From IMG/VR virus record IMGVR_UViG_2554235304_000012: 35,661 bases of DNA; one strand, given 5' to 3'. The position numbers and the translations under genes are program-made. The stretch comes from a virus. Lineage: Duplodnaviria > Heunggongvirae > Uroviricota > Caudoviricetes. Shown here piece after piece: positions 1,602 through 28,994 of the stretch; within the stretch, counting starts at the first letter, position 1, and each line of letters begins with the position of its first letter. The notes under the pieces are model-generated. The model saw only the letters and a program-made list of their open reading frames with translations, was not told the DNA's origin and did no database searches.

Positions 1602-2702
1602 TTACTCTGTTTCTGCTATCCATTCCGGGATTTTGGCTTCAAGCTCAAGCTGCGTGGTAAAGCCACTGTTATCAATGGTGTGCTCGGCTTTTGCAATGAT
1701 CCAGTCCTGATTATCAATCTCGCTTTTAAATCCTGTTACCGTGCCATGCATTTCGGGGTAGAGTTCTGCTCGTCCACGTGCCAGCGTGATGGAAAATGAT
1801 GCGGCTCCGCGTTGTAGCTGCTGCCATTTTGCCGCCGCTGCGCGTCTTGCTGCCTGCTCGTTCTGATAAGTTTTGCGTAACACAAACACGTTGCCTTCCG
1901 CACCTTCCATATAGTCACCTTCACGGCTGCTGCTTTTCTCTTTTTTCGGTTTGCGGCGTTTCACGCTGACTTTTTTCTTTTTCCCGTAATTAAGATCAAG
2001 CCAGTAGGCGCGTACACCCGTATACGCCTCGCGGTCAGCAATGCGGAACTGATGGCGATCGCCGCTGCTGCGTGTGATGGCGAACGATGGCAACGGCTGG
2101 CCCAGTGCGTTCACGCGACCGCCTGGCATGATGAATAACAGATTACCGCTTTTTACCGTGGTGATTGCGCCCAGCATTTCCGCCATGCGCGTAAGGAAGG
2201 ACATGTCGCTTTCTTCGGTCTGGTCGGCGTGGTCGATTTCGATATCCATCAGTATTTCGCTGATTTGCGGTTTCAGACCGTACCGATGAGCGATGGCAGA
2301 TACCACGCGCTCAACGGTCACATCATGCCAGGACACCTCACGTTTAACGTTAAATTCATCCCGAAAATCTGCGCTTCTGGCTGAAACAGTCAGCCTGTCC
2401 GGCGGTCCTTCGTGAGCGATTTCATCAACAATGTAAGTGCCTTTTTCTGTCAGCGGTTCTCCTTTCCAGCCAATGAGAACCGTCAGGCGCGCGCCCCGTG
2501 GCGGTAGCTGCAACTGACCATCCGCATCATCCAGCGTGATGGTGAGCTGGTCCGCCTCAAATCCCCGGTTGTCGGTCAGTGACAGGCTCATCAGGCGCTC
2601 TGCCACGCCTGACAGCGTTTTACCCTCCGCGAGAATATCAAAATCCGGCATTTTCACGGGGTCTGTGCCCTGACTGAGCAATTGCATGGTGGTATCGGTC
2701 AT
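1602..2702 (-). CDS. D: Tail protein D (late control gene D family)
   Basis: Track ORF 1602..2834. Product matches the P2 gpD family over its length. Start is ambiguous (ATG at 2702, 2687 or upstream); 2702 chosen. Confidence 0.8.
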   Translation of the reverse strand: MTDTTMQLLSQGTDPVKMPDFDILAEGKTLSGVAERLMSLSLTDNRGFEADQLTITLDDADGQLQLPPRGARLTVLIGWKGEPLTEKGTYIVDEIAHEGPPDRLTVSARSADFRDEFNVKREVSWHDVTVERVVSAIAHRYGLKPQISEILMDIEIDHADQTEESDMSFLTRMAEMLGAITTVKSGNLLFIMPGGRVNALGQPLPSFAITRSSGDRHQFRIADREAYTGVRAYWLDLNYGKKKKVSVKRRKPKKEKSSSREGDYMEGAEGNVFVLRKTYQNEQAARRAAAAKWQQLQRGAASFSITLARGRAELYPEMHGTVTGFKSEIDNQDWIIAKAEHTIDNSGFTTQLELEAKIPEWIAETE

Positions 2703-2859
2703 CTGTTCCCTCCCTGTGCGGCATGGTCGCATGTGCGTGCGGAGGGGGTTACTGCTTTTTGTTGTCGCCGGGTCGGGAGAACGGCGCAGGGGTGAGATTA
2801 CGCGCGTGGTGGGTGATGATTGTTGCCGAATCATTTTACGGATACAAGGGGCTGAAGCT
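2703..2859. promoter_or_regulatory. Divergent intergenic region between D (-) and FI (+); presumed late promoter(s)
   Basis: 157-bp non-coding gap between two divergently oriented late genes. No Ogr-box consensus found by eye. Confidence 0.3.
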
Positions 2860-4044
2860 ATGAGTGAAACTCGTTTTCATGGTGCCCGTGTTACGGAAAA
2901 TACCGACCTGGTAACAGCGATTAATGATGTTGATTCCAGTGTTATCGGTATCGTGGCAACGGCGGATGATGCGGACGCGAAGCTGTTCCCGCTGAACAAG
3001 CCCACACTGCTGACCCGCGTCAATGACGTGCTGGGAAAATGCGGGACAACGGGGACGCTTTATCGTGCGCTTAAGGCTATCGCAGACCAGGTGAGCACAA
3101 AGGTGATCGTCGTTCGCGTGGCTGAACACAAAGAAGAAGACGGAAAGACGCAGGATCAACTGGTTATCGGTGGTTCTGAATCTGACGGCAGCTATACGGG
3201 GATGTATGCGCTGCTTGTTGCAGAGCAGGATGAAAGCATCGGATACCGTCCGCGTATTCTGGCCGCGCCGGAGCTGGACACGGAGGCGGTGACAAAATCC
3301 CTGTGCGTGATTGCGGGTAAACTGCGCGCGTTTGTGTATGCCTCATGTCATGGCTGTGACACGATGGCTGATGCGATTACCTACCGCCAGAAATTCAACG
3401 AACGTGAGGTGATGCTCTTATGGCCGGACTTCATCGCCTACAACCCGAAAAGTGGCAAAAACGAAACGTTCCCCGCGCCTGCCTATGCGTGCGGCCTTCG
3501 TGCGTACATTGACCATGAGCAGGGCTGGCACAAATCACTGTCCAACGTTCCGGTTAAAAATGTGCTGGGGATGTCGAGGCATGTGTTCTGGTCGTTGCAG
3601 GCCGAAGACAGCGATGCCAACAGCCTCAACAACAAAGAAATCACGACCATTATTCGTCGCAACGGGTTCCGCTTCTGGGGCAACCGCACACCGGAAACGA
3701 ACGCCTACATCTTTGAGGTGTATACCCGAACCGCACAGGTGCTGGCTGATTCAATTGCGGAAGCGCAGTTTGAAACCATCGACAGTCCACTGACGCCTGC
3801 GAACGTGAAGGATGTTATCAGTGCCATCAGGGCAAAACTGGATTCACTGGTGACTGCCGGGAAACTGATTGGCGCGGAGTGCTGGTATGACGTGGTGGAT
3901 AACAGCACCACGGATTTACGTCAGGGGCGTGTGCGTATTCGCTACAAATATACGCCCGTTCCGCCACTGGAAGACATGGAGCTTTACCAGACGTTTACTG
4001 ATGAATACTTTGAACCCGCATTTGCGGTGCTGGGAGGTGCCTGA
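2860..4044 (+). CDS. FI: Tail sheath protein FI
   Basis: MSETRFHGARV...SDADAKLFPLNKP...QGWHK.LSNV...IRRNGFRFWGNRT...YTPVPPLE aligns by eye with P2 FI. ATG at 2860 follows GGGGCTGAAGCT. Stop overlaps the FII start (ATGA-type coupling). Confidence 0.9.
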   Translation: MSETRFHGARVTENTDLVTAINDVDSSVIGIVATADDADAKLFPLNKPTLLTRVNDVLGKCGTTGTLYRALKAIADQVSTKVIVVRVAEHKEEDGKTQDQLVIGGSESDGSYTGMYALLVAEQDESIGYRPRILAAPELDTEAVTKSLCVIAGKLRAFVYASCHGCDTMADAITYRQKFNEREVMLLWPDFIAYNPKSGKNETFPAPAYACGLRAYIDHEQGWHKSLSNVPVKNVLGMSRHVFWSLQAEDSDANSLNNKEITTIIRRNGFRFWGNRTPETNAYIFEVYTRTAQVLADSIAEAQFETIDSPLTPANVKDVISAIRAKLDSLVTAGKLIGAECWYDVVDNSTTDLRQGRVRIRYKYTPVPPLEDMELYQTFTDEYFEPAFAVLGGA

Positions 4045-4556
4045 TGGCTGTGCCAAAACATCTTCGCTTTTTTACGCTGTTTGTGGATGGTGAAAACGAA
4101 GTGGGTAAGGTGACGTCCGTCACCCTGCCTAAGCTGACGCGCAAAACCGACAGCTACCGGGGTGGTGGCATGATGGGGGCGGTAAGTATTGATCTCGGTC
4201 TGGACGACTCCGCGCTTGATGCGAGCTTTGTCATGGGGGGCGCAGTTCGTGAGCTGTTCCTTAAGTATGGCGGCACGATTGACGGCACGCTGCTGCGTTT
4301 TGCGGGTGAATATTACACCGATGCAGAAAGCGACCTGTATGAAGTCGAAATGCGCGGACGTGTGACGGAAATTGATATGGGGGAAGCCAAACAGGGCGAA
4401 GCCACATCACACACTTACGCCATTAAAAACACCTACTACAAGCTGAGTGTTAACGATCGTCCGTTGTGGGAGATTGACCTGCTGAACTTCATTTACCGGA
4501 AGGACGGCAAGGACATTGTGCCCGATCGCATCCGTTCCGCGCTCGGGCTTGGCTGA
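4044..4556 (+). CDS. FII: Tail tube protein FII
   Basis: MAVPKHLRFFTLFVDGENEVGKVTSVTLPKLTRKTDSYRGGG resembles P2 FII (..SVTLPKLTRK..YRGAG..). About 170 aa. Confidence 0.9.
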   Translation: MAVPKHLRFFTLFVDGENEVGKVTSVTLPKLTRKTDSYRGGGMMGAVSIDLGLDDSALDASFVMGGAVRELFLKYGGTIDGTLLRFAGEYYTDAESDLYEVEMRGRVTEIDMGEAKQGEATSHTYAIKNTYYKLSVNDRPLWEIDLLNFIYRKDGKDIVPDRIRSALGLG

Positions 4557-4611
4557 TAAGTAATATGCAGGCGGCGCAGTGCGTCGCCTCTGACTGAAAA
4601 GGAGACAACTG

Positions 4612-4986
4612 ATGAAAAATATCGATACTGAAACCCGGAATAACACCGTAGCGGATGATGTGACGGCAGGTGAGGATATGGCTGTCGAACGTGGTGTAAA
4701 ACTTTCCCGGCCAATTGAGCGTGGTGCCGAAAAAATCACATATGTGGAGATCACCGGGGCTATTGAGCAGGCGGGATCCCTGCGTGGTCTGTCGCTGTCT
4801 GATGTGCTGAATCTGAAAGCGGATACCATGTTCACGCTGTTGCCTCGCGTGACCTCGCCACAACTGGATGAAGTGATGATTAAAAAAATGTCGTCACGCG
4901 ATTTTATTCAGTTGTGCGCTGTGGCTGTAAATTTTATGAGCGAGCCAGACTCTGGCGCGAAGAGCGTGCAGGAGACGGCAGCGTAA
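4612..4986 (+). CDS. E: Tail assembly chaperone E (zero-frame product)
   Basis: Position between FII and T. AAGGAG Shine-Dalgarno before the ATG at 4612. Contains an A7 slippery run at 4882-4888. Confidence 0.7.
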   Translation: MKNIDTETRNNTVADDVTAGEDMAVERGVKLSRPIERGAEKITYVEITGAIEQAGSLRGLSLSDVLNLKADTMFTLLPRVTSPQLDEVMIKKMSSRDFIQLCAVAVNFMSEPDSGAKSVQETAA

Positions 4987-5150
4987 TCACCCTGGTGTGC
5001 TTTGAGCACATCGAAGATCTGGTGGCGGATATTGCCACCATTTTTAACTGGTCGCCCGCCGAAATCTTCATGATGACTCCCGGCGAAGTGGTTAGCTGGC
5101 GTGAGCGGGCGGCACTTCGCAGCGGGAATACAGACAATGAAGACTCTTGA
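4612..5150 (+). CDS. E+E' fusion from a programmed -1 ribosomal frameshift at the A7 run 4882-4888
   Basis: The -1 frame is open from 4884 to the stop at 5150 and overlaps the start of T, as for P2 E/E' and lambda G/GT. Confidence 0.5.
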
Positions 5151-7944
5151 TATCCGGGTCGCTTTCAGCGCCGTTGACAGGCTGACCCGGCCTGCCGAAA
5201 ACGCCCGCCGCCTGATGGGGCAGTTTGGTGACTCCATCCAGCGAACGCAGGGGGCGATCAAAAATCTCGAGCGTCAGGCGCGTTCATTTGAGCGCGCCCG
5301 TGACGCTGTCAGTAAAGCGGATGCTGGCATATTGAAAGCACGACGCCAGCTTAACGCTCTTAATCAGTTACAACGCACGGGTACAGTGCTCAGCGAAAAA
5401 CAACAAAAGCTGATGCAGCAGTTAAGCACCCGGCTTGAACGCCTGAATGAATCGCGCACACGGGAAATTCAGAAAATGCGGGAACTTGGCGGAGAGCTGA
5501 AACGCCACGGCATTTCCCTGACAGGCAGCGATAACACCATCCAGCAGGCCATCAGACGCACCGAACAGTACAACAACCAGCTTGAACGCGAACGGCAGGC
5601 GCTTGCGCGTGTAACGCGGGCGCGTGAGCGGTATTCGCGCGCGCAGGAAACCGCGGGAAAACTGAAAACAGGTGGTGCGCTGGCAATTGGTGCGGCAGCG
5701 GCGGGCGGCTATGCTGCCGGGCGTTTTTTGCAGCCCGCGATCGGGTTCGGCAAAGAGATGTCCCGCGTTCAGGCGCTGACGCGAATCGACCAGAACAGCC
5801 CGCAGTTTAAGGCGCTGCGTGAGCAGGCGTTAAAACTTGGCTCTGAAACGCAGTTCACCGCAGGCGATGCCGCCAGTGGGCAGGCATTTCTTGCAATGGC
5901 TGGCTTCACACCGCAGGCCATTCAGGCTGCGCTTCCCGGAGTGCTGAGCATGGCAACGGCTGGCGGTATGGATCTCGGCGAGACGGCAGATATTGGCTCA
6001 AATATCCTGACGCAGTTCGGCCTTTCTGCTGACCAGATGGACCGGGTCGGTGACACACTCACCGCAGCGTTTACCCGTACCAACACTGACCTTCGCGCAC
6101 TGGGCGAAACCATGAAATATGCAGGTCCGGTGGCGGGTAAGCTGGGAATATCGCTGGAGCAGGCCGCAGCGATGGCTGGCGTGCTGGCGAATATGGGCAT
6201 CAGAGGGAGTGATGCCGGGACGGCAATGCGTGCCAGCCTGGCTCGTCTGGCATCACCGCCAAAGGCGGCGGCAGAAGCTCTGAAAGAGCTGGGCGTGTCC
6301 GTCTCGGATGCCGGGGGCAAAATGCGCCCGATGGAGGATGTGCTGGCCGACCTTTATAAAGCCACCCGCAAATACGGGGAAGTTGACCGGGTATCGTTCT
6401 TTAAGGACATTGCCGGAGAAGAGGCTTTCACATCGTTTATGGCGCTCGTTGATGCAGCGGGTGACGGTTCCTTACCCAAACTGAGAAAAGAACTTGAAGG
6501 CGCGCGCGGTGAGGCTGAACGCACAGCAAAGGTTATGGCCAACAACCTTGACGGCGATCTGAAATCACTCGGCAGTGCATGGGAAGGGTTGCGCATCCGC
6601 ATTGCAGATCTGATTGACGGTCCGCTGCGTTCTGTCACGCAGTGGCTCACGCGGGTGGTATCAAGGGTGACGGCGCTGGCGCAGGCCCATCCGGCACTGA
6701 CGCGCCAGCTACTGATAGCAGGCGGTGCGTTGCTGGCAATGACTGCAACGGTTGGCTCGTTGTCGCTGGCTATTGGTGTGCTTGCTGGTCCGCTGGCAAA
6801 ACTGCGTCTTGGTTTTTCTCTCCTGACCGGATCAATGAATGCTGTCAGGGTCCTGCCAGCACTATGGGGAATGGTGACGGGTTCCGTTTCTTTACTGGGA
6901 GGCGCTATCGGGGCGCTGTTCAGTCCGGTTGGTCTTATCGTGGCTGCACTTGCCGGAGCTGCCGTTCTTATCTGGAAATACTGGGATCCCATCAGGGCAT
7001 TTTTTGCCGGGGTGTTCAGCGGGATTATGGAAAGGCTGGCCCCGTTGCGCGAAACCTTTGAACGGTTTGGTCCTGTTTTTGACGCAATCGGAAGCGGGAT
7101 CAGCCAGGTGTTTAACTGGTTTAAATCGCTGCTGTCACCGATGGAGTCCAGCAAGGAAACGCTGGATAAATGTACCAGTGCTGGCGAGATATTCGGTAAC
7201 GTTCTTGGCGGTGCGTTACAACTTGTTCTGACGCCTGCAAAAATGCTACTGGATACGCTGGCGTGGATACTTGAAAAACTTGGCGTCCTTCCGGATGAAG
7301 CGGAAAGGGCGCGCAAGAAAATCGAAGACGCACAGCGTGCGGCCATTCTTCAGGACAAGGTTGCCTTGCTTCAGGGGGACCTGGCGAAAATCAATCCGCC
7401 GAAGCCTGTGGAAAATGGCAATGGCACCGGAGGTGATAAACCCAAAGACAACAAACCGCTCACAGACAGCAATACCGGTACGCTACGCAGACTCAGCAAA
7501 ATTGCTGATAACACAGGTAAGCTGGTTGATGAGACGAAAAAACGCATTGGCCCCGGCGATATTGTCTTTAAGAATCTGCCCCGCGCACTTGCTGTTCGTG
7601 GGGAGTGGCAGGAGCGGAAGATTGCGCAGGTCAGTAAGCCTGCTTCCGCAATCAACATCACACCCGTGGTCCCGACTCCTCTGCCTCCGGCGCTGGTCCC
7701 TGTTGTTGCGGCCAGCTCCCGCCCGGTGGCGGAGGCCATACGATCGCCAGTGGCATCAGTTCCTGCAACTTCCCGTAACCGGGAGCCTGTTGTCTCCGGA
7801 TTTGGCGGTGAAATTCATGTTCATCTGCATAACGTTGTTACGCAGAATCCCCGCAAACTGGCGAAACTGGTCGGTGAAATGGTCAGGGCAGAATTGGAAC
7901 GACGCGACCGTGCCGGACGTGGCAGTTTTTACGATAAAGATTGA
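5137..7944 (+). CDS. T: Tail tape-measure protein T
   Basis: About 935-aa protein with a coiled-coil-rich N-terminus and Gly/Ala-rich hydrophobic central segments typical of tape-measure proteins. Sits between E/E' and U. Start taken at ATG 5137; the track begins at GTG 5101. Confidence 0.85.
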   Translation: MKTLDIRVAFSAVDRLTRPAENARRLMGQFGDSIQRTQGAIKNLERQARSFERARDAVSKADAGILKARRQLNALNQLQRTGTVLSEKQQKLMQQLSTRLERLNESRTREIQKMRELGGELKRHGISLTGSDNTIQQAIRRTEQYNNQLERERQALARVTRARERYSRAQETAGKLKTGGALAIGAAAAGGYAAGRFLQPAIGFGKEMSRVQALTRIDQNSPQFKALREQALKLGSETQFTAGDAASGQAFLAMAGFTPQAIQAALPGVLSMATAGGMDLGETADIGSNILTQFGLSADQMDRVGDTLTAAFTRTNTDLRALGETMKYAGPVAGKLGISLEQAAAMAGVLANMGIRGSDAGTAMRASLARLASPPKAAAEALKELGVSVSDAGGKMRPMEDVLADLYKATRKYGEVDRVSFFKDIAGEEAFTSFMALVDAAGDGSLPKLRKELEGARGEAERTAKVMANNLDGDLKSLGSAWEGLRIRIADLIDGPLRSVTQWLTRVVSRVTALAQAHPALTRQLLIAGGALLAMTATVGSLSLAIGVLAGPLAKLRLGFSLLTGSMNAVRVLPALWGMVTGSVSLLGGAIGALFSPVGLIVAALAGAAVLIWKYWDPIRAFFAGVFSGIMERLAPLRETFERFGPVFDAIGSGISQVFNWFKSLLSPMESSKETLDKCTSAGEIFGNVLGGALQLVLTPAKMLLDTLAWILEKLGVLPDEAERARKKIEDAQRAAILQDKVALLQGDLAKINPPKPVENGNGTGGDKPKDNKPLTDSNTGTLRRLSKIADNTGKLVDETKKRIGPGDIVFKNLPRALAVRGEWQERKIAQVSKPASAINITPVVPTPLPPALVPVVAASSRPVAEAIRSPVASVPATSRNREPVVSGFGGEIHVHLHNVVTQNPRKLAKLVGEMVRAELERRDRAGRGSFYDKD

Positions 7945-7950
7945 GGAGTC

Positions 7951-8445
7951 ATGGCCATGATGATGATCTACGGCATGTTTGTTTTTGAGCTGCGCACATT
8001 GCCGCATCAGCAGTTACAGCAAAACAAAAGCTGGCGGCATGTGAAAAATGAACGCGTTAACCGTTCAGCAAGCTGGCAGTATATCGGCGCAGGTGATGAT
8101 CGCATCGTGCTTTCCGGCGTGCTTTATCCTGAAATTACAGGTGGCGAAGTGTCGCTTTCGTTGCTGACCACGCAGGCATATACAGGACGCCCCTGGCCTC
8201 TGATTGATGGTGTCGGGCAGATTTACGGCATGTATGTACTGACTGAAACGAATACGACCCGTTCCGAGTTTGATCGCTACGGTAAGGCGAAAAAGATAGA
8301 ATTTTCACTGACTCTTGAACGCTGTGATGAGGATTTGCGGGAGCGCCTGCAATCCTCATCGTTCAGTGATATGCTGTCCGGCTTCAAAGATAAGGTCACA
8401 TCATCCCTTAACAGCGCGGCCAGCTCCGTTAAAGGGCTGTTTTGA
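7951..8445 (+). CDS. U: Tail protein U
   Basis: ..SWRH..N.R....S..WQ.IGAGDD.I.L.GVL.PEITGG..SL..L......WPLIDG.G.I.GM.V.......SE......KIEFSL.L.R.DED aligns with P2 gpU. Confidence 0.85.
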   Translation: MAMMMIYGMFVFELRTLPHQQLQQNKSWRHVKNERVNRSASWQYIGAGDDRIVLSGVLYPEITGGEVSLSLLTTQAYTGRPWPLIDGVGQIYGMYVLTETNTTRSEFDRYGKAKKIEFSLTLERCDEDLRERLQSSSFSDMLSGFKDKVTSSLNSAASSVKGLF

Positions 8446-8453
8446 TTAACGCA

Positions 8454-8488
8454 AAACCGCTAATGGTCAGATTAGCGGTTTTTATTTT
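8454..8488 (+). terminator. Rho-independent terminator after the FI-U operon (also abuts the 3' end of the invertase gene)
   Basis: Perfect 11-bp stem AAACCGCTAAT / ATTAGCGGTTT with loop GGTCAG, followed by TTTTATTTT. Confidence 0.55.
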
Positions 8489-9071
8489 CCTGAGTCTGCC
8501 TGGTTGTTTCTTCAGCCTGTATATCGCCTACAGGGTGATAACGATAAATCGTCGATATGCCGATGTCGTAAATGATCGCCAGTTGTTTCCTGTCATGACC
8601 GTTTTTAATCAGCCTCGCTATTTGCTCGTGTTGTTCTTTTGTCAACTTCGGGCGACGTCCGCCAATGCGTCCTTGTGCGCGTGCTGCTGCCAGCCCGGCC
8701 AGTGTACGCTCTACAATTAATTCACGTTCCATTTCGGCTAAAGCCCCCATGACGTGAAAAAAGAAACGCCCCATGGGTGTTGATGTGTCAATGCTGTCCG
8801 TCAGACTACGGAAATTAACACCTTTTTCCCGCAATTCCTCAATAAGCGTGATCAGGTGTTTCATACTTCTGCCCAGTCTGTCCAGCTTCCAGACAACCAG
8901 CGTATCTCCTTCTGATAGCGTTCTGAGCAGTTTTTTCAATCCCGGTCTGGCTGATTTCGTTCCGCTGATTTTATCTTCAAAAATCAGTTCACATCCTGCG
9001 CAGTTCAGTGCATTGCGTTGTAAATCCGTGTTCTGGTCATTTGTTGACACACGAATATAGCCAATTTGCAT
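8472..9071 (-). CDS. Cin/Gin/Hin-family serine DNA invertase
   Basis: MQIGYIRVSTNDQNTDLQRNAL..GCELIFEDKISG...RPGLKKLLR.L..GDTLVVWKLDRLGRSMKHL..LIEELRE.G.NFRSLTDSIDTSTPMGRFFFHVMGALAEMERELIVERT.AGL..ARAQGRIGGRRPKLT is near-identical in pattern to P1 Cin / Mu Gin as remembered. Start set to ATG 9071 (AGAGGA Shine-Dalgarno at correct spacing). Confidence 0.9.
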   Translation of the reverse strand: MQIGYIRVSTNDQNTDLQRNALNCAGCELIFEDKISGTKSARPGLKKLLRTLSEGDTLVVWKLDRLGRSMKHLITLIEELREKGVNFRSLTDSIDTSTPMGRFFFHVMGALAEMERELIVERTLAGLAAARAQGRIGGRRPKLTKEQHEQIARLIKNGHDRKQLAIIYDIGISTIYRYHPVGDIQAEETTRQTQENKNR

Positions 9072-9125
9072 AAAAAACATCCTCTTTGTTTCGTGAAAAA
9101 TACAGAGTTGGTATAGGTAGGGATA

Positions 9126-9151
9126 AAAACGAAAACGTTGGTTTGGGGGAA
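9126..9151. repeat. hix/cix-like recombination site 1 (centre TT at 9138-9139)
   Basis: CGAAAACG-TT-GGTTTGGGGGAA. Homology to the other two copies begins exactly here. Confidence 0.5.
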
Positions 9152-9571
9152 GGCTCTGCACTGCCCGTTGGTGTGCCCGTTCCGTGGTCCTCAGCAACAC
9201 CACCAACGGGCTGGCTGAAATGTAACGGTGCAGCATTTTCTTCTGAAATGTATCCCAGACTGGCAAGGGCTTATCCCACCAATAAATTACCGGATTTACG
9301 CGGTGAATTTATCCGTGGCTGGGATGATGGGCGCGGGATTGATGCGGGACGTACCCTGCTTTCAGGGCAGGATGGTACAAGTTTTTCTCATTACGGAGGT
9401 AATTTCGACATTGGGTCTGGTCATTCAATCAATAACTATGACCAAATTGTTTCTAACCAACCAGGCTTTTCCCGTTTTTCATTTGCAGGGCCTTCACGAG
9501 GTGATGGGGTTAATTATGTAACCATTCGTCCTCGTAATATTACGTTTAATTACATCGTAAGGGCAGCATGA
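9139..9571 (+). CDS. Promoterless alternative tail-fibre C-terminal cassette 1 (silent orientation)
   Basis: The translation (within track ORF 9086..9571) shares GLGEGSALPVGVPVPW..ATPPTGWLKCNGAAFSSE.YP.LA.AYPTNKLPDLRGEFIRGWDDGRGIDA and the C-terminal PRNI.FNYIVRAA with the H C-terminus, but has a different middle region. Confidence 0.6.
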
Positions 9572-9590
9572 AAACGTTGGTTTGGGGGAA
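9565..9590. repeat. hix/cix-like recombination site 2 (centre TT at 9577-9578)
   Basis: GCATGAAAACG-TT-GGTTTGGGGGAA. Same core as site 1, in direct orientation to it. Confidence 0.5.
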
Positions 9591-10040
9591 GGCTCTGCAC
9601 TGCCCGTTGGTGTACCTGTTCCGTGGCCCTCAGCCACACCGCCAGCAGGGTGGCTGAAATGTAACGGTGCAGCATTTTCTTCTGAAATGTACCCAAAACT
9701 GGCAAAGGCCTACCCCACCAATAAATTACCGGATTTACGCGGTGAATTTATCCGTGGCTGGGATGATGGGCGCGGGGTGGATGCCGGAAGGGGCATCTTA
9801 AGCATGCAGGGGTGGTTAACAGGAAGTCATTATCATAATATTCGGTCATGGGATGCGTGGGATAACACGGTGTTGGTGCCAAATGACAAAGGAGGGGATA
9901 GTCTGTTGTCGACAGATAACGCCGTCCGGCAAGGTGCAATTAACGGTAGATTTACCAGTCAATACAGAACGGAATCCTCAGAGGGGAATGAAACCCACCC
10001 ACGCAATATTGCCTTCAATTATATTGTGAGAACCGCATAA
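9578..10040 (+). CDS. Promoterless alternative tail-fibre C-terminal cassette 2 (silent orientation)
   Basis: Track ORF 9582..10040. Shares the conserved junction sequence and C-terminal RPRNIAFNYIVR.A with H, with a distinct central receptor-binding region. Confidence 0.6.
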
Positions 10041-10651
10041 TGAATAACGCGATATTAAATGATGACCTTATTGCCGTACAGGCAGGAAACATCGTCGTTT
10101 ATAACTATGATGGTGAGACACGGGAATATATTTCCGAATCAACTGAATATCTTGCTGTGGGTGTCGGTATTCCGGCAAATTCCTGTTTAGATGCCCCGGG
10201 CGCACATAAAGCGGGCTATGCTATCCGCCGTTCGGAGAATTTAAGCTCATGGGAGTATGCGCCAGACCATCGTGGTGAAACCGTCTATAGCACTGACACG
10301 GGAAACACCGAAGAAATCACGGCGCTGGGTGACTACCCGAAAAATACAACCACTATCGCCCCGTTAACACCATACGATAAATGGGATGGTGAAAAATGGG
10401 TGACAGATACTGAGGCACAACATCGTGCTGCAGTAGAAGCGGCAGAAACCAAGCGCCAGTCACTGGCTGATGCGGCAATGGCTTCCATAAGTCTGATTCA
10501 GTTGAAGTTGCAGGCCGGGCGGAAGTTGACGCAGGCAGAAACCACCCGGCTTAATGCCGTGCTGGATTATATAGACGCGCTGAACGCAATGGATATAAAC
10601 ATGGCACCAGATATCAACTTGCCGGAAATACCACTGGCAGCAGCCAGTTGA
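10040..10651 (+). CDS. Tail fibre assembly chaperone (Tfa / Mu U / P2 G-like)
   Basis: 203 aa with ...WVTDTEAQHRAAVEAAETKRQSLADAAM..ISLIQLKLQAGRKLTQAETTRLNAVLDYIDALNAMD, typical of the Tfa C-terminal region. Start overlaps the cassette 2 stop. Convergent with H. Confidence 0.8.
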   Translation: MNNAILNDDLIAVQAGNIVVYNYDGETREYISESTEYLAVGVGIPANSCLDAPGAHKAGYAIRRSENLSSWEYAPDHRGETVYSTDTGNTEEITALGDYPKNTTTIAPLTPYDKWDGEKWVTDTEAQHRAAVEAAETKRQSLADAAMASISLIQLKLQAGRKLTQAETTRLNAVLDYIDALNAMDINMAPDINLPEIPLAAAS

Positions 10652-10657
10652 ATATAA

Positions 10658-12271
10658 CTAAGCCGCCCTCACGATATAGTTAAATGCAATATTGCGGGGG
10701 CGGGTTTCACTACCACCTGTGTTACCAATACTTCCTCGTGAATGAAGCGTTGGTGATGGAATCAAACTCCCTCCTGTATTTGTGGCATCAAGCCCCCTGC
10801 CTTGCGTATATGTTTTTTTGAAAATCGTGGCCAACTCCCATTCATCCTTTGTGTCATATCCATCGTTAGCTACAACAATATGGCGGTGTTTTTCCAACAT
10901 CCCGTTTTGAATGCTCAATAAAGCGCGTGCCGCATCAATTCCTCGCCCATCATCCCAGCCACGGATAAATTCACCGCGTAAGTCTGGTAATTTATTGGTG
11001 GGGTAAGCCCTTGCCAGTTTTGGGTACTTTTCAGAAGAAAATGCTGCGCCGTTACATTTCAGCCATCCCGTTGGCGGCGTGGCTGAGGGCCATGGAACGG
11101 GCACACCAACGGGCAGTGCAGAGCCTTCCCCCAAACCAAGGTAATCAAGAACTCCCTGAGTGCTGGTTTTACCAAGAATGGCACGTCCAACACTTGTCAA
11201 CGCGGTTAACGCGGCACGATCTGCCCCTGTAAAATATGGGAGTTTATCTGCTGATGTAGCAAGCTCTGCCAGCGCCGTCAGGGTGGCATCCTTCGGTTGC
11301 TTACCCGCAAGCGCGTTAGTCATGGTGGTCGCAAAATTCGGGTCATTGCCCAGCGCCGCAGCCAGTTCGTTCAGCGTGTTCAGTGCATCAGGTGACGAAT
11401 CTACAAGTGCGGCAATCGCGGCCATAACGAAAGCCGTGCTTGCGATCTGGGTACTATTAGTCCCCTGTGGCGCTGTTGGTGTTGTTGGCGTTCCGGTCAG
11501 TGCCGGGCTGTTTAATGGTGCTTTCTTGTTCGTTTCATCCATTACCGCCTTAACAGCTTTTGGTGTCGCTGCCAGCGTTTCAGACGTGCTGTTCGTGGCG
11601 CTACTGAGCTGAACAATTCCTTTTTGTGTAGTGGTGGCGTTCTGGGCGGTATATTTCCCGTTAGCCAGGTCATATGCAGCCTTAACCGCTTTCGGTGTTG
11701 CGGCCAGTGTTTCTGATTCACTGTTAATTGCACTGCTTAACTGAGTAAAACCTTTTACGGTCAGCGAGGCGTCCGGGTGACGTCGTGACTGTTCGTGCTC
11801 TGAGATTTTATCATCCACATATTTGCGGGTTGCCAGAACCACAGACGGGTCGATTTTCAGCGTGATGGCTTCGGTGTTCGTGACAACCAGAATCATGCGG
11901 ATAGTCTGGGTGCGTCCACTGCCTTCCTGCAACTGCGGTTTGTACGTTTCCGGGCAGTTTGCCACCGCAATGAGTACACCTTCATCATCATAAAGACCAA
12001 TCTCACGGATCCAGAATCCTCCCTCGTTTTCAGGGATGATTTGCTCCGCAATAATCTGGCTCTGATTGTTAGGGTCAACACTCAGAAGATTCAGCGGTGC
12101 AATGCGTTTCTGGTTAATCAGTTTTGTTTGTGCAGGGTCTGGTGTTGGTAACACACCATTTGCATCACCAACGGCCATTTGCGTCAGATTCAGCTTACTG
12201 CCGAGCATCGTCGCGTTAGCCAGTCGTGCCGCGCCCTGATTAGTCAGAATGGCGTAGTATTTCACTGTCAT
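10658..12271 (-). CDS. H: Tail fibre protein H (P2 H-like constant N-terminus fused to variable C-terminal segment)
   Basis: N-terminal about 380 aa align with P2 H (..ELVIPPE.GGFW.RE.GLYDD.G.LIAVAN..E.YKP...EGSGR.QT.RM.I..; SETLAATPKAVKAAYDLANGKYTAQ repeat). The C-terminal 159 aa start at the hix-like site. Confidence 0.85.
   Translation of the reverse strand: MTVKYYAILTNQGAARLANATMLGSKLNLTQMAVGDANGVLPTPDPAQTKLINQKRIAPLNLLSVDPNNQSQIIAEQIIPENEGGFWIREIGLYDDEGVLIAVANCPETYKPQLQEGSGRTQTIRMILVVTNTEAITLKIDPSVVLATRKYVDDKISEHEQSRRHPDASLTVKGFTQLSSAINSESETLAATPKAVKAAYDLANGKYTAQNATTTQKGIVQLSSATNSTSETLAATPKAVKAVMDETNKKAPLNSPALTGTPTTPTAPQGTNSTQIASTAFVMAAIAALVDSSPDALNTLNELAAALGNDPNFATTMTNALAGKQPKDATLTALAELATSADKLPYFTGADRAALTALTSVGRAILGKTSTQGVLDYLGLGEGSALPVGVPVPWPSATPPTGWLKCNGAAFSSEKYPKLARAYPTNKLPDLRGEFIRGWDDGRGIDAARALLSIQNGMLEKHRHIVVANDGYDTKDEWELATIFKKTYTQGRGLDATNTGGSLIPSPTLHSRGSIGNTGGSETRPRNIAFNYIVRAA
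11126..11151. repeat. hix/cix-like recombination site 3 inside H, inverted relative to sites 1 and 2 (centre at 11138-11139)
   Basis: Minus-strand reading is TTCTTGATTACC-TT-GGTTTGGGGGAA, very close to hixL TTCTTGAAAACC-AA-GGTTTTTGATAA as remembered. Confidence 0.55.
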
Positions 12272-24056: not shown

Positions 24057-26261
24057 TTACGTGTCGAGAGAAATTTGTGTGCGCAGTTGAATAGGATTCA
24101 GAATTGTATATCGCTGGCGAATAACATTATATAAATCAAAGTCTTTTACCCTTACGCTTATTACCATCGCATATTGCATATCAGGGGCTGAAACTCCCTT
24201 AACATGGCGCGAAGAATCTCGGGCATGATACCGTATATCAAAAACTGGATCGCTTAATAATGTATCAGCACTGAACTTTTTGCTTCTGTGCAAACAAGTT
24301 TCCCACTTATGACCTTCACTCCTACACTCCCTTTCAGTCTTATACTGGCTTTTTTGACCAAAGAAATCATCTGTATCGGTATCGTCAAGGCCGAATCTTG
24401 GGCGGAAAGTTACCTGCATACCGGCCCTTGTATAGTTTACTGAATGTTCAGGATCTACTGGGGTTTGAATGCATAAAGTAGCGGTAAGCTCAAATGCTTC
24501 GTCAAAGGGAACATCAGGGAATGGGATCGGTGCCCTTAAATATTTATTTTTTGCTAATGAACCATAGTAAATTACTGTAGCAGTATCATTTGGACAATCG
24601 ATTAAAACGTTAGGATCCTCACTAAACCGTCCCCAACCGATATGTTCACGCGAATATTTTCTTGATGTTTCAGCATGATGAACAAGCAACGCTTTCAATG
24701 CAATGGTGTTCAATGGAGTTCCTGATAGAGCCGCAACTCCAGCGGCCGTTCTCAATGCTAATGGAGAGGCATAACTGGTTCCTTGAACTCCAACTATAGA
24801 ACCAAGCAGAGGGTTGTAAGTGTAAAAAGGCTCGTCGTCGCTTCCACCAAAAATAACACCATCAGGTTTAACGAATCCGGGGCTTCTGCCTGGCCCAATA
24901 CAGCTATATGGTGCCCGCCCCCATTTTTCACCGCTACGATCAGCAGCACCAATCGCTAGCGCGTTTACCATATCGGAAGGAGGTTGTATTCTCGCTGCAT
25001 CACCGTCCTCATTGCCATCATTCCCAACAGCAACAGTAAGTAATATCCCATGCTTAGCACAGATTTGGTCTAAAACAGCAGTCCATACATGAACCTCATC
25101 ATCACCAATTGGAAGATGAGGACCAATACTTAGATTAGCGAACTTATAGTCACCACTATCAAGAACGGACTGTATTTTCTTAAGGACATCAAATAAATCC
25201 CAATTGCCATTGTCACCTGATGTCGGTGAAAGAACTCTATAATGATCTACATTCATAAACGGTCTTTTAAAAGAAGGTGCATTTTCCTCGACACGTCCGA
25301 ATAAGAAAGTGGATGTCACTTCATTACCGTGCTGCAATAATAATCCGCTTGTTTCTTTGGTGTCTGGATACACGTATTCCGTAACCCAATTACTCAAGTC
25401 AGCTGTCCCCAAGCCACCATCAAAAATGGCAATACGTTCGGATTCAAGAACAGCTTTAGAATTAGGGAGCTCCGGTGTAACTATATTAGATAACTTTCTG
25501 ACAATGTTCGGCTGAGTACACCTGAGAGACGGCATCGGCCGCACAACGCGGATTAATGAAAAATCGAGTGTTTTTTTCATATCTTCAGGTCGCGCGTGTG
25601 CAACGATGAAAGTCAGCCCACCAACTTGGATTCTACTTTTGTAATCAACAGAGACATCATATTGTGCCGCATAGCTAATATAGGCTTTAACGATATCATC
25701 GTCTTCAACCCCAGCATGAAGAACCACTTCAAATTTTATCAAATCACTTTTCGCATGCTCAAAATTGCGTGCTCTCTCTTTTCCTTCAAAAAAGCTAACA
25801 CTTTCAATTTCGATCAAATCCTTTTGTACGCCCTTCGGAGCTGTAGGGGAATTTAAAATTTCCTTAAATCTTATAACGGCATCATCATCACCGCTAACAA
25901 ACAGTTGCGCCGTTACTAAGTCCTTATTCTGATCGCACTGACGTGCCGCTTTCCGTGGGCGAATGATTACCTGACGGCTGCCGACATCCCGTAAACCTGT
26001 CGCTCTAAGCAATCCTTCCGGAAAGTAGCTTTTACCCAAAAACGCTGGGTGTAAAGTTAAATTGAATACACTCTCCCCCCTTGGCTTAGCCGCATCATCC
26101 AAACTGCGAAAGCGTGAGAGTAAAGTATCAATCTCTGGGTTTAAATGCTCCCTTACTTCTTCAAGAGTATAGGGATAGCGCTTACCATCCCTTCCTTTAG
26201 GCAAAGGTTCCTTTTTTGTCAGAACATGACCGTTACCTAAAAGTAAGTTCCTTTCCATCAT
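24057..26261 (-). CDS. Subtilisin-like serine peptidase (S8 family), 734 aa; IetS-like
   Basis: Asp box IAIFDGGLG, oxyanion-hole region VAVGNDGNEDG and Ser box GTSYASPLALRTAAG in S8 order. Start overlaps the upstream ATPase stop by 4 nt. AT-rich by eye. Confidence 0.85.
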   Translation of the reverse strand: MMERNLLLGNGHVLTKKEPLPKGRDGKRYPYTLEEVREHLNPEIDTLLSRFRSLDDAAKPRGESVFNLTLHPAFLGKSYFPEGLLRATGLRDVGSRQVIIRPRKAARQCDQNKDLVTAQLFVSGDDDAVIRFKEILNSPTAPKGVQKDLIEIESVSFFEGKERARNFEHAKSDLIKFEVVLHAGVEDDDIVKAYISYAAQYDVSVDYKSRIQVGGLTFIVAHARPEDMKKTLDFSLIRVVRPMPSLRCTQPNIVRKLSNIVTPELPNSKAVLESERIAIFDGGLGTADLSNWVTEYVYPDTKETSGLLLQHGNEVTSTFLFGRVEENAPSFKRPFMNVDHYRVLSPTSGDNGNWDLFDVLKKIQSVLDSGDYKFANLSIGPHLPIGDDEVHVWTAVLDQICAKHGILLTVAVGNDGNEDGDAARIQPPSDMVNALAIGAADRSGEKWGRAPYSCIGPGRSPGFVKPDGVIFGGSDDEPFYTYNPLLGSIVGVQGTSYASPLALRTAAGVAALSGTPLNTIALKALLVHHAETSRKYSREHIGWGRFSEDPNVLIDCPNDTATVIYYGSLAKNKYLRAPIPFPDVPFDEAFELTATLCIQTPVDPEHSVNYTRAGMQVTFRPRFGLDDTDTDDFFGQKSQYKTERECRSEGHKWETCLHRSKKFSADTLLSDPVFDIRYHARDSSRHVKGVSAPDMQYAMVISVRVKDFDLYNVIRQRYTILNPIQLRTQISLDT

Positions 26262-27340
26262 TTAATCCCCCACTTTTGTAATTTATTCGCGATTGTTGGA
26301 TGTGAAACACCAACTAATTCAGCTATCTTCCTATTTGAAAAACCGTCAAAATGATATTTAATTATATTGAGATCATTATCGCTAAACTCATCCAATGAAA
26401 CCCTCTCCGTAATTACGGCTTCTATTAATGAGCTTTCAAATGGAATATTTCTAAGTACCTCATTCTTTTTGGAGAAATTCAAAATACGGTTAATGATGGC
26501 AAAGGACATGCCATCTAATAATGGTGCAAGTTTTTTAGATAGTTCAGGTTCAATATTATGATTGACTAAATATCTATCTATCAGTTCTACTGATGGCATA
26601 TTAAATTTAAGGATGTGCTCAAATCGACGCCAAACAGCCGGATCTAAGATATCAGGGTGATTAGTCGCAGCAACAAGAAGCGAGGTCGCTGGCCACTCAT
26701 CTATGGTCTGTAGGAGTACAGTAACTAAACGTTTTAATTCTCCAACGTCCCTGTCATCATCACGTCTTTTTGCAACAGCATCAAATTCATCAAGCAAAAG
26801 GACACATGGTTTCTCTTTGGCATAATCCATAACGGATTTAATATTATTACCTGTTTTTCCCAAAAGAGAACTCATTACAGATGAGAGATCCAATGTTAAA
26901 AGAGGTAAATTTAACTTTGCAGCAAGCCAATGTGCGGACATTGTTTTGCCTACGCCTGGCGGGCCAGAAAGTAAAACCGTCTTCACAGGTTCAAGACCAG
27001 CTTTGAACAAAGAAACCGCATTCTCTCTTTCGTTAACAATTGACTCCAGCTTCTTTGAGATATCCGTATTCCATACAGGTTCTTCAACAATTGCGTTGAC
27101 AGATGTTTCCTGCAAAAGGTTTCGTCTGGAGTCTCCATCCACAGGCATAGGAGCCTTACTAGATGCCCCACGTAATACTGTTCCCTCAGCAACTAACGAA
27201 GCCAGCTTAGAAGCTAAAGCCTCATCATTTTTACGGATGTTGTTAATCATCTTTCTGCATAGGAGTGTAAATGCATTTGCGTTGCCTTTGATGCCTTGCT
27301 CGATGAGTTTGAAAAGTTCATCCTCCCTCACGTTTACCAT
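26258..27340 (-). CDS. AAA+ ATPase with C-terminal helix-turn-helix, 360 aa; IetA-like
   Basis: Walker A GPPGVGKT, Walker B VLLLDEFD, sensor/SRH region LLVAATNHPDILDPAVWRRF, and a C-terminal HTH NRKIAELVGVSHPTIANKLQKWGI. Confidence 0.85.
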   Translation of the reverse strand: MVNVREDELFKLIEQGIKGNANAFTLLCRKMINNIRKNDEALASKLASLVAEGTVLRGASSKAPMPVDGDSRRNLLQETSVNAIVEEPVWNTDISKKLESIVNERENAVSLFKAGLEPVKTVLLSGPPGVGKTMSAHWLAAKLNLPLLTLDLSSVMSSLLGKTGNNIKSVMDYAKEKPCVLLLDEFDAVAKRRDDDRDVGELKRLVTVLLQTIDEWPATSLLVAATNHPDILDPAVWRRFEHILKFNMPSVELIDRYLVNHNIEPELSKKLAPLLDGMSFAIINRILNFSKKNEVLRNIPFESSLIEAVITERVSLDEFSDNDLNIIKYHFDGFSNRKIAELVGVSHPTIANKLQKWGIK

Positions 27341-28034: not shown

Positions 28035-28994
28035 TTACTCCTTGTCCATTGCGTACAGCCCATTAACCAGAGCAAACTGTGGCACCCCGTCCGCGATGAA
28101 AGTCGCATTAACTCCGCAGGCTTCGCGGATAGCGGGTGCCACAATCTCCGCCCCTCCACCGACAACCATCACCCGCCCGTAACCCGAAAAAACCGCCAGC
28201 GCGCGGATCACGCGTTGTTTCAGTGTTTCCTCCTTTTCACGAATAACTGCCATCAGGCTGGCGTAATGCGCGTCATTGTGGATGTGCTGGCGCAGCCAGG
28301 CTTCATCGTGGCGATGTTCGATAATGGTATTGGCGATGTGGTGACTGGTGCGCATACCGTTGGTGGCCATCACCGACAGCACGGCATCGGCCATCAGAGA
28401 AACGCCTACGTGTGGATCGCAAAACACCTGGCTGATACCTGCCAGTTGCCCCTGAACCTTTGCCACATCCAGCGTGGTTCCGCCCAAATCCACAATCAGC
28501 AGGGATTCAAACGGACTCATGTCAGCCAGTGCTTTAAAGCCAGCCGGAATGGATTCAGGCATAACCCGCACGTTACGGATAGTGAATGCCTCGCCGTTTT
28601 GGTACTCCACCGGGCGCATAACGTTCGCTTTTTTGCGGTTGATGTTGGCCATGTCCGGCTGTGCGTTTGTGTCGAAATACTCGCTCAGTGGCAGGGTGAC
28701 AACCACATCCACCTCCTGTGGCGTGATGCCTGATTTGACCAGCGCATGATGAATGGCAATGACATTCACATCGCTGTACTGGTATTGCGTGTCGGTCGTC
28801 TGGACAAAGCGATCGCTGACCGGATCAAAACCATAGCGCACGCCATCAAGCATGTAGTTCGCGGGCTGCGTGCCACCGAACGGCGCAGACCATTCCGACT
28901 TGAAGCTGTTCGGGCTGATGGCGTTGCGGTGTTCGCCGTTCTCAGTCCATGCCAGCTTGATGTTGGTGGAGCCGTCGTCGATACAAATTTTCAT
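28035..28994 (-). CDS. parM: ParM/StbA actin-like segregation ATPase
   Basis: MKICIDDGSTNIKLAW......ISPNSFK.EW...FG...NY.L.G..Y.FDP.S......T....YSDVNV.A.HHAL..SG....EVD.V.T.PL.E..D.N.QP...NI.RKKAN..R......G..FTI..V.VMPESIPAG...L......SLLI.DLGGTTLD aligns closely with R1 ParM as remembered. Confidence 0.9.
   Translation of the reverse strand: MKICIDDGSTNIKLAWTENGEHRNAISPNSFKSEWSAPFGGTQPANYMLDGVRYGFDPVSDRFVQTTDTQYQYSDVNVIAIHHALVKSGITPQEVDVVVTLPLSEYFDTNAQPDMANINRKKANVMRPVEYQNGEAFTIRNVRVMPESIPAGFKALADMSPFESLLIVDLGGTTLDVAKVQGQLAGISQVFCDPHVGVSLMADAVLSVMATNGMRTSHHIANTIIEHRHDEAWLRQHIHNDAHYASLMAVIREKEETLKQRVIRALAVFSGYGRVMVVGGGAEIVAPAIREACGVNATFIADGVPQFALVNGLYAMDKE

Follow-up and report, generated by a model that had tools for sequence, protein, structure and literature searches.

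In the classic invertible fibre segments, namely the P segment of e14 (StfE-TfaE / StfP-TfaP, with the invertase PinE), the G segment of Mu (S-U / S'-U') and the C segment of P1, the invertase gene adjoins the segment, a crossover site lies inside the fibre gene, and two tips are accompanied by two chaperones, one behind each. The Min multiple-inversion system of plasmid p15B and P1-like phage-plasmids, which is said to go back to Sandmeier, Iida and Arber (1990-92), reportedly combines a Din-family invertase with six crossover sites. Here we describe the tail-fibre module of a 35,661-nucleotide (nt) stretch of viral DNA (IMG/VR record IMGVR_UViG_2554235304_000012; the whole stretch is called the window below), which represents a P2-like prophage. 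As in e14, Mu and P1, the invertase gene adjoins the segment and a crossover site lies inside the fibre gene; in addition, the tip Sva and the TfaE-type chaperone of the window are homologous to those of e14-like elements. In contrast to the classic segments, the window and about 30 relatives carry 2-9 tips with one chaperone. Like Min, as that system is reported, the window has a Din-family invertase, a number of sites above two and a fibre gene that can receive several alternative 3' ends; it differs in having a P2-like backbone with three sites instead of a P1-like backbone with six. The P1-like phage vB_EcoM-673R5 matches 38% of the module at 88.7% nt identity, and maps as six collar cassettes with one assembly gene.

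The locus itself has already been published, and Min-type multiple inversion of fibre tips is a known kind of system. Goldberg et al. (2014, Genome Med 6:112; PMC4272514) described, in a P2-like prophage of Escherichia coli O127:H6 E2348/69, a "shufflon" that has three inverted repeats, inverts stretches of about 1.8 and 2.2 kb, and occurs in four variants with three alternative C-termini, and they showed by polymerase chain reaction that all four of these variants occur together in cultures from single colonies. A term search of the text of that paper found no discussion of an assembly chaperone, which is the subject of our analysis. In the captured arrangement the tail-fibre assembly gene (tfa) lies on the strand opposite to the expressed fibre gene, H, and we consider it probable, at roughly 0.6, that its product would be a generalist chaperone shared by all collar tips and supplied to them in trans. 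This reading is drawn from sequence comparison and is favoured by tfaE genes lying in cis beside the same tips in other loci, by the recurrence of arrays with one tfa, by the conservation of the N-terminal part of Tfa, and by purifying selection on the cassettes. The features of the module are as follows.

8453-8482: bidirectional hairpin resembling an intrinsic terminator, between the stop codons of gpU (8445) and of the invertase gene (8472); 12-bp stem, then the U-rich tract TATTTTCC on the plus strand
8472-9071, minus strand: serine DNA invertase of the Din family (Hin/Gin/Cin/Pin/Min-type), 199 residues, ATG at 9071
9072-9125: spacer between the invertase gene and site s1, holding the invertase ribosome-binding site AAGAGGA (minus strand)
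9126-9151, plus strand: crossover site s1, AAAACGAAAACG TT GGTTTGGGGGAA
9152-9571, plus strand: silent cassette Sv1 (tip type G), collar head and 74-residue variable end; Collar domain, E=2e-14
9565-9590, plus strand: crossover site s2, AGCATGAAAACG TT GGTTTGGGGGAA
9591-10040, plus strand: silent cassette Sv2 (tip type B), open reading frame (ORF) 9582-10040; Collar domain, E=2.3e-15
10040-10651, plus strand: tfa, TfaE-type tail-fibre assembly chaperone, 203 residues; Caudo_TAP, E=1.9e-31
10658-11125, minus strand: tip Sva (type A), at present fused to the constant part of H; gp37-like collar, HRH motif, conserved ETRPRNIAFNYIVRAA end
11126-11151, minus strand: crossover site sH, lying within H; minus-strand sequence TTCTTGATTACC TT GGTTTGGGGGAA
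11152-12271, minus strand: constant part of the P2 gpH-like tail fibre (Hc); Phage_tail_fib, E=1.5e-62, and Phage_fiber_2, E=6.4e-42

H is a 537-residue ORF (10658-12271, minus strand) with a P2-type N-terminal Phage_tail_fib domain, fibre repeats and a C-terminal Collar domain, and Hc is 88% identical to P2 H at the nt level. The Collar domain (PF07484) is present in all three tips. Sv1 and Sv2 are promoterless and lie on the plus strand; the stop codon of Sv1 (9569-9571) falls inside s2, and Sv1 has no tfa of its own. Sv2 is the only cassette with tfa directly downstream, the ATG of tfa overlapping the Sv2 stop codon as TAATG. As the initial annotation had it, the variable segment of H ends at 10658 with antisense sequence beyond, and tfa lies convergently behind the second cassette; the ORF map places 6 bp between the stop codons of tfa and H. 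According to Magaziner and Salmond (2022; PMC9659904), receptor-binding proteins of the gp37/lambda-Stf-like family always have the assembly gene directly downstream. In the window this arrangement holds for Sv2 and not for Sva or Sv1. Likewise, two convergent tfa genes, with an assembly gene of its own behind each tip, are found in the classic loci L003 and L005 and not in the window.

The invertase has the architecture of small serine recombinases, with an N-terminal Resolvase domain (3.4e-51) and a C-terminal HTH_7 domain (2.3e-12; Pfam). Its gene is read away from the cassette array, on the strand of the H operon, and a 600-nt invertase gene identical to it is annotated in RefSeq for E2348/69. 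The spacer at 9072-9125 probably also carries the weak promoter of the invertase gene; it is kept across multi-cassette arrays and differs in the classic two-tip loci.

Three crossover sites were identified. They are hix-like and 26 bp long, each consisting of a 12-nt variable half, a TT core and GGTTTGGGGGAA, and each of the long repeats of the module starts with one. The left half of sH, TTCTTGATTACC, agrees with hixL, TTCTTGAAAACC, at 10 of 12 positions. The recombining partners stand in inverted orientation (s1 and s2 on the plus strand, sH on the minus strand) and have a 2-bp core, as in the Din family; with more than two sites and three alternative 3' ends for one constant gene part, the module is of the multiple-inversion (Min-type, shufflon-like) kind. 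The long repeats, of 217-240 nt (9135-9351 and 9569-9808, inverted relative to 10908-11147), are real and are 88-92% identical. A further inverted repeat of 61 nt around tfa (9979-10039 / 10659-10719, 77%) was rejected as a recombination element; it is the common C-terminal coding sequence of the tips and holds no hix-like site.

Every site links one upstream half to one tip head. Since the block Sv2-tfa-Sva is headed at both ends, four arrangements are possible:

Isomer 1: Hc-Sva, with tfa antisense (the arrangement in the window)
Isomer 2: Hc-Sv2-tfa
Isomer 3: Hc-Sv1, then Sva, with tfa antisense
Isomer 4: Hc-Sv1, then Sv2, then tfa

The four DNA isomers yield three fusions, in place of the three isomers originally counted. 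Sva never stands on the same transcript as tfa, whatever the isomer. The expectation that a single inversion at site 1 or site 2 would put tfa downstream of the new fusion is borne out; for Sv1, though, tfa is co-transcribed in just one of the two isomers, across about 460 nt of untranslated Sv2. Comparison with E2348/69 (NC_011601) indicates that the inversion is real, as the window segments between the sites are 100% identical to that genome and rearranged exactly at the TT cores. The locus is the same one; the reference genome shows arrangement 3 (Hc-Sv1, then Sva), whereas the window shows Hc-Sva. The inversion sizes in PMC4272514 agree with the site spacing in locus L002. As we read that paper, about 90% of E2348/69 cells carry H fused to Sv1.

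The product of tfa is a full-length TfaE orthologue. PF02413 (Caudo_TAP) covers residues 78-198, following the Tfa pattern of a conserved C-terminal domain after a less conserved N-terminal fibre-binding domain, and the protein is 77-78% identical to the TfaE proteins of L003-L005 over all 200 residues, the N-terminal domain included; the small convergent t-type Tfa aligns with it only over C-terminal residues 120-202. No sequence match of the window Tfa to any solved structure was found. The initial annotation was right that this is the single tfa gene: a Tfa hidden Markov model built from 97 relatives and run over all six frames of the window returned ORF 10040-10651 (E=3.5e-63), the next best score being E=2. 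The minus strand opposite tfa was also considered as a source of a chaperone; its ORFs are only 41-51 residues long. The variable end of Sva resembles the tip of T4 gp37 (PDB 2xgf, E=2.8e-17); the alignment takes in the collar head as well as the C-terminal NIAFNYIVR segment, so that the end shows the gp37-like combination of a collar domain, a variable insert and a conserved ...NIAFNYIVR C-terminus. Compared with T4 gp37-gp38 and lambda Stf-Tfa, the window shares this head and C-terminus, and its variable insert is much shorter. An HxH motif is present as HRH in Sva and as HYH in Sv2, and is absent from Sv1.

Tips of the Sva type (about 87% nt identity) occur in the e14-like element of strain O157:H7 MB9-1, in the P2-like prophage of strain AH21, and in strain NWU_3 (L004-L006), and in all three tfaE lies directly 3' of the tip on the same strand. 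Because these tips elsewhere directly precede a tfaE that is 77-78% identical to the window gene, the window tfa is of the type that normally serves Sva; by homology, the convergent gene is the cognate chaperone type for the expressed tip. A look at homologous prophages for a tfa downstream of this fibre variant had been suggested beforehand; among Sva-type tips sampled independently of tfa, 19 have one in cis.

To place the module in context, we surveyed 80 viral contigs fetched by the Tfa protein, 78 by the Sva tip and 72 by the Sv1 tip (about 230 loci), in which heads, tfa genes, invertase and Hc were mapped by tblastn. Two layouts were recognised. The classic layout has one collar tip with a TfaE-type gene, convergent with a small tfa and a gp53-like tip. 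The array layout, seen in about 30 loci, has 2-9 collar cassettes with one TfaE-type gene, always in the order "SB> T> <S", and "T> <SA" is the commonest core among arrays. The only array with two tfa genes (L010 / L094 / L167, IMGVR_UViG_2541047915_000010) carries the SB-tfa-SA unit duplicated in opposite orientations, in the order Hn> SG> SA> <T <SB SB> T> <SA inv>. The largest array (L029, IMGVR_UViG_2541047595_000008) lies on a contig of 6 kb that breaks off within it, and has one tfa for its nine or more collar cassettes. Altogether 26 tip types were told apart, with the head and the ETRPRNIAFNYIVRAA tail common to all. The numbers of copies with and without tfa in cis were as follows.

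Tip A (Sva): 7 with tfa in cis, 23 without
Tip B (Sv2): 26 with, 0 without
Tip C: 9 with, 15 without
Tip D: 1 with, 13 without
Tip E: 5 with, 8 without
Tip F: 5 with, 7 without
Tip G (Sv1): 0 with, 11 without

When Sva-type tips were sampled independently of tfa, 19 had tfa in cis, nine had it convergent and two had it non-adjacent in the same module; no Sva-type tip of this sample stood in a locus lacking tfa. In the broader sample of collar tips, four loci were without tfa, three of them cut by the contig end and one broken by IS1, and no intact locus with a collar tip but no tfa was found among the sampled loci. In the IS1 case (L214, 5503-6200) the element (InsA/InsB) directly follows the collar cassette, and tfa and the remaining fibre and baseplate genes are gone from what is a degraded prophage. 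TfaE-type proteins behind 16 different tip types are 74-94% identical in residues 1-80, and the inserts of those tips are unalignable. A contiguous Hc-Sva fusion with tfa antisense, as in the window, was found in about eight complete E. coli genomes and several viral contigs. E. coli O39:H21 (L001, 4245-5978) carries a near-identical prophage with a fourth cassette, in which H is annotated with only 455 residues and is followed by a 264-nt "hypothetical" ORF; a frameshift in the expressed fusion, or its disruption, may account for the short H and this ORF.

The same counts bear on the possibility, one of two offered at the outset, that the expressed tip folds without a chaperone. If Sva and Sv1, with their short variable inserts (74-90 residues), trimerised without Tfa, tfa would serve only Sv2, whose translation is the only one always coupled to that of tfa. 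Most array cassettes do lack tfa and yet are under purifying selection, no tfa promoter is evident in the captured orientation, and the type G tips, which were confined to arrays in the sampled loci, have neither tfa in cis (0 of 11) nor an HxH motif. T4 gene-37 mutants bypassing gp38 are known. We nevertheless regard chaperone-free folding of Sva and Sv1 as unlikely. Tip types A, C, D, E, F and H keep the TfaE gene immediately downstream in classic two-tip loci, where no other collar-type tip is there for it to serve; Sva-type tips differ little in protein between array and classic contexts (about 95% identity; pN 0.044, the proportion of nonsynonymous differences); no intact sampled locus has a tip but no tfa; and adjacency of the assembly gene is described as invariable for the gp37-like receptor-binding family (PMC9659904).

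Selection on the cassettes was estimated from pooled Nei-Gojobori counts over their variable parts, as the ratio of nonsynonymous to synonymous differences (pN/pS). Array copies without tfa in cis gave 0.14 for type A (pS 0.22), 0.21 for C, 0.24 for D and 0.18 for E, similar to the 0.16-0.27 of copies with tfa in cis, and tfa in arrays gave 0.26. These ratios indicate that cassettes lacking a tfa of their own are under purifying selection.

Taken with the recurrence of one-tfa arrays, these data point to a chaperone shared in trans, which would work as follows. The Din-family serine invertase recombines the three 26-bp sites of this Min-type "shufflon" module, so that Sva, Sv1 or Sv2, all of them gp37-like collar tips, becomes attached to the constant part of H. 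There is one TfaE-class chaperone rather than one per tip. It would be a generalist for the tip family, with the collar head and the ...RPRNIAFNYIVRAA tail common to all tips as its most likely points of recognition, and would act in trans on whatever tip is fused to H. The captured tip, Sva, is presumably a normal TfaE client whose chaperone gene the layout puts on the opposite strand. We infer both that the chaperone serves all tips and that enough of it is made even when its gene is antisense to the late operon. If this is so, one TfaE-class protein would fold some twenty unrelated tip inserts, and the stated rule that every gp37-like tip has its own assembly gene directly downstream would have to be qualified; the TfaE-class chaperone, the collar head and the conserved tail could then form a plug-and-play scaffold for changing the host range of phages or tailocins. 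The design of one chaperone and many tips is recurrent; for half of the isomers it poses an expression problem, as tfa then runs antisense to the late operon.

Several observations weigh against the shared chaperone, and most of them concern that expression. The generalist role is read from the joint occurrence of tips and tfa and from conserved sequence. The pN/pS values sum pooled pairs that lack phylogenetic independence, and the constraint seen on the cassettes could be overstated through recombination with classic loci. On the plus strand upstream of tfa (8483-10040) no sigma-70-like promoter reached the tool threshold, and a relaxed scan gave weak matches of 7-8 of 12 positions only. The strong plus-strand terminator at 8453-8482 should halt read-through from the tail operon, the start of tfa overlaps the stop codon of untranslated Sv2 and has a weak Shine-Dalgarno sequence (GTGAGAA), and late transcription of H crosses tfa in antisense.

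Other candidate sources of tfa transcription were considered and set aside. The weak sigma-70 candidates are TTAACA-15-AATATT at 9816-9842 and, in the head of every cassette, CTGGCA-17-TAAATT. It is unlikely that transcripts of the plus-strand tail operon read through into tfa, as they would have to pass the hairpin with its U-rich tract and then about 1.5 kb of untranslated RNA. The P2 Ogr-type late promoter TGT-N12-ACA has hits at 9087-9104 and 9871-9888, but the five matches obtained compare with 8.7 expected by chance; this dyad was also not found in the capsid/terminase (PO/PP) intergenic region of the window phage. A low-diversity block at about 9790-9880 in Sv2 encodes the HYH motif, and coding constraint explains its conservation. 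A divergent promoter in the invertase-s1 spacer was likewise dismissed, the conservation of the spacer being accounted for by the ribosome-binding site and promoter of the invertase gene itself. In large arrays, tfa can sit several untranslated cassettes 3' of the fusion even in the "sense" isomers, so that a signal inside the SB-tfa unit that works in either orientation is an appealing idea. Our guess is that the signal lies inside the Sv2-tfa unit or comes from the invertase side.

The classic loci differ in the flank on the invertase side. In L003-L006 and about 40 others, a conserved flank, ...CCGGAGATGATGCCAGTTA..., lies between the invertase gene and the outer site and gives the "silent" cassette a Shine-Dalgarno sequence and an ATG (MMPV...GLGEGS); the flank of the arrays is different and has neither. 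The start signals of the classic flank may be connected with the short StfE/StfP proteins that e14 produces (PMC12529663).

The placement and signals of tfa could also mean that the tfa-antisense isomers (Hc-Sva and one of the two Hc-Sv1) make little chaperone and few or no functional fibres, in which case the switch would set chaperone supply, and with it fibre yield, as well as receptor specificity, and the shufflon would be a phase-variable ON/LOW switch. The convergence of tfa on H with 6 bp between the stops, the failure of the scans to find a promoter, the terminator that blocks tail-operon read-through, the TAATG overlap coupling tfa to an untranslated cassette, and the antisense late transcription passing through tfa all suit such a low-yield state. 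It is rather improbable, however, as Sva cassettes in arrays, which are never cis to tfa, still show the pN/pS of 0.14 at pS 0.22, as "T> <SA" is the commonest array core, and as the state is frequent in assembled genomes. The alternative drawn by the initial annotation, chaperone-free folding or an off-like state, therefore stands only in part: it omitted the shared trans chaperone, which is the best-supported option, and of its two branches, both less likely than that option, the first is disfavoured by the Sva-type tips (19 cis, nine convergent, none in a tfa-less locus), while the second conflicts with the constraint on array Sva but agrees with the fact that no route for tfa transcription was found in the captured orientation.

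Supply of the chaperone from elsewhere, either from another prophage of the host or from replicated phage genomes that flip during lytic growth, seems very improbable to us. Din-family inversion is slow in Mu and P1, which speaks against lytic flipping, and flipping during growth would mix fibre types as well. A resident prophage could not be depended on in every new host, and nothing else Tfa-like is present in the 35.6-kb window. On the other side, E2348/69 harbours another P2-like prophage and a Mu prophage with invertible loci (PMC4272514). In addition, the H operon is followed downstream, on its own minus strand, by the invertase gene (8472-10658), and between the two there is only one weak 5-bp terminator-like hairpin (10467-10455), so late read-through could raise invertase levels, and with them inversion, in lytic growth.

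The surroundings of the module are those of a P2-like tail region, with a gene order unlike that of P2. The two operons concerned are:

Plus strand: tail operon FI-FII-E-T-U, with sheath, tube, tape measure (5101-7944) and gpU (7951-8445)
Minus strand: V-W-J-I-H operon, with gpI, J, W and V upstream of H

The plus-strand sheath-tube-tape measure-gpU operon (within the region 1602-8445 of the window) converges on the H operon, and a gpD-like gene (1602-2834) lies divergently on the minus strand. The adjacency of gpU and invertase is common to P88-like (Xuanwuvirus) phages. Farther along, a low-GC insert (39-43%) of two minus-strand genes at 24057-27340, between the portal gene and the replication region, encodes a 734-residue subtilase matching IetS (6.6e-41) and a 360-residue AAA ATPase matching IetA (3.6e-89), and constitutes an IetAS anti-phage defence system borne as prophage cargo. 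Finally, a gene for a ParM/StbA-type actin-like segregation protein (StbA_N, 2.7e-82; 28035-28994, minus strand) adjoins the gpA replication gene of this integrated P2-like prophage.

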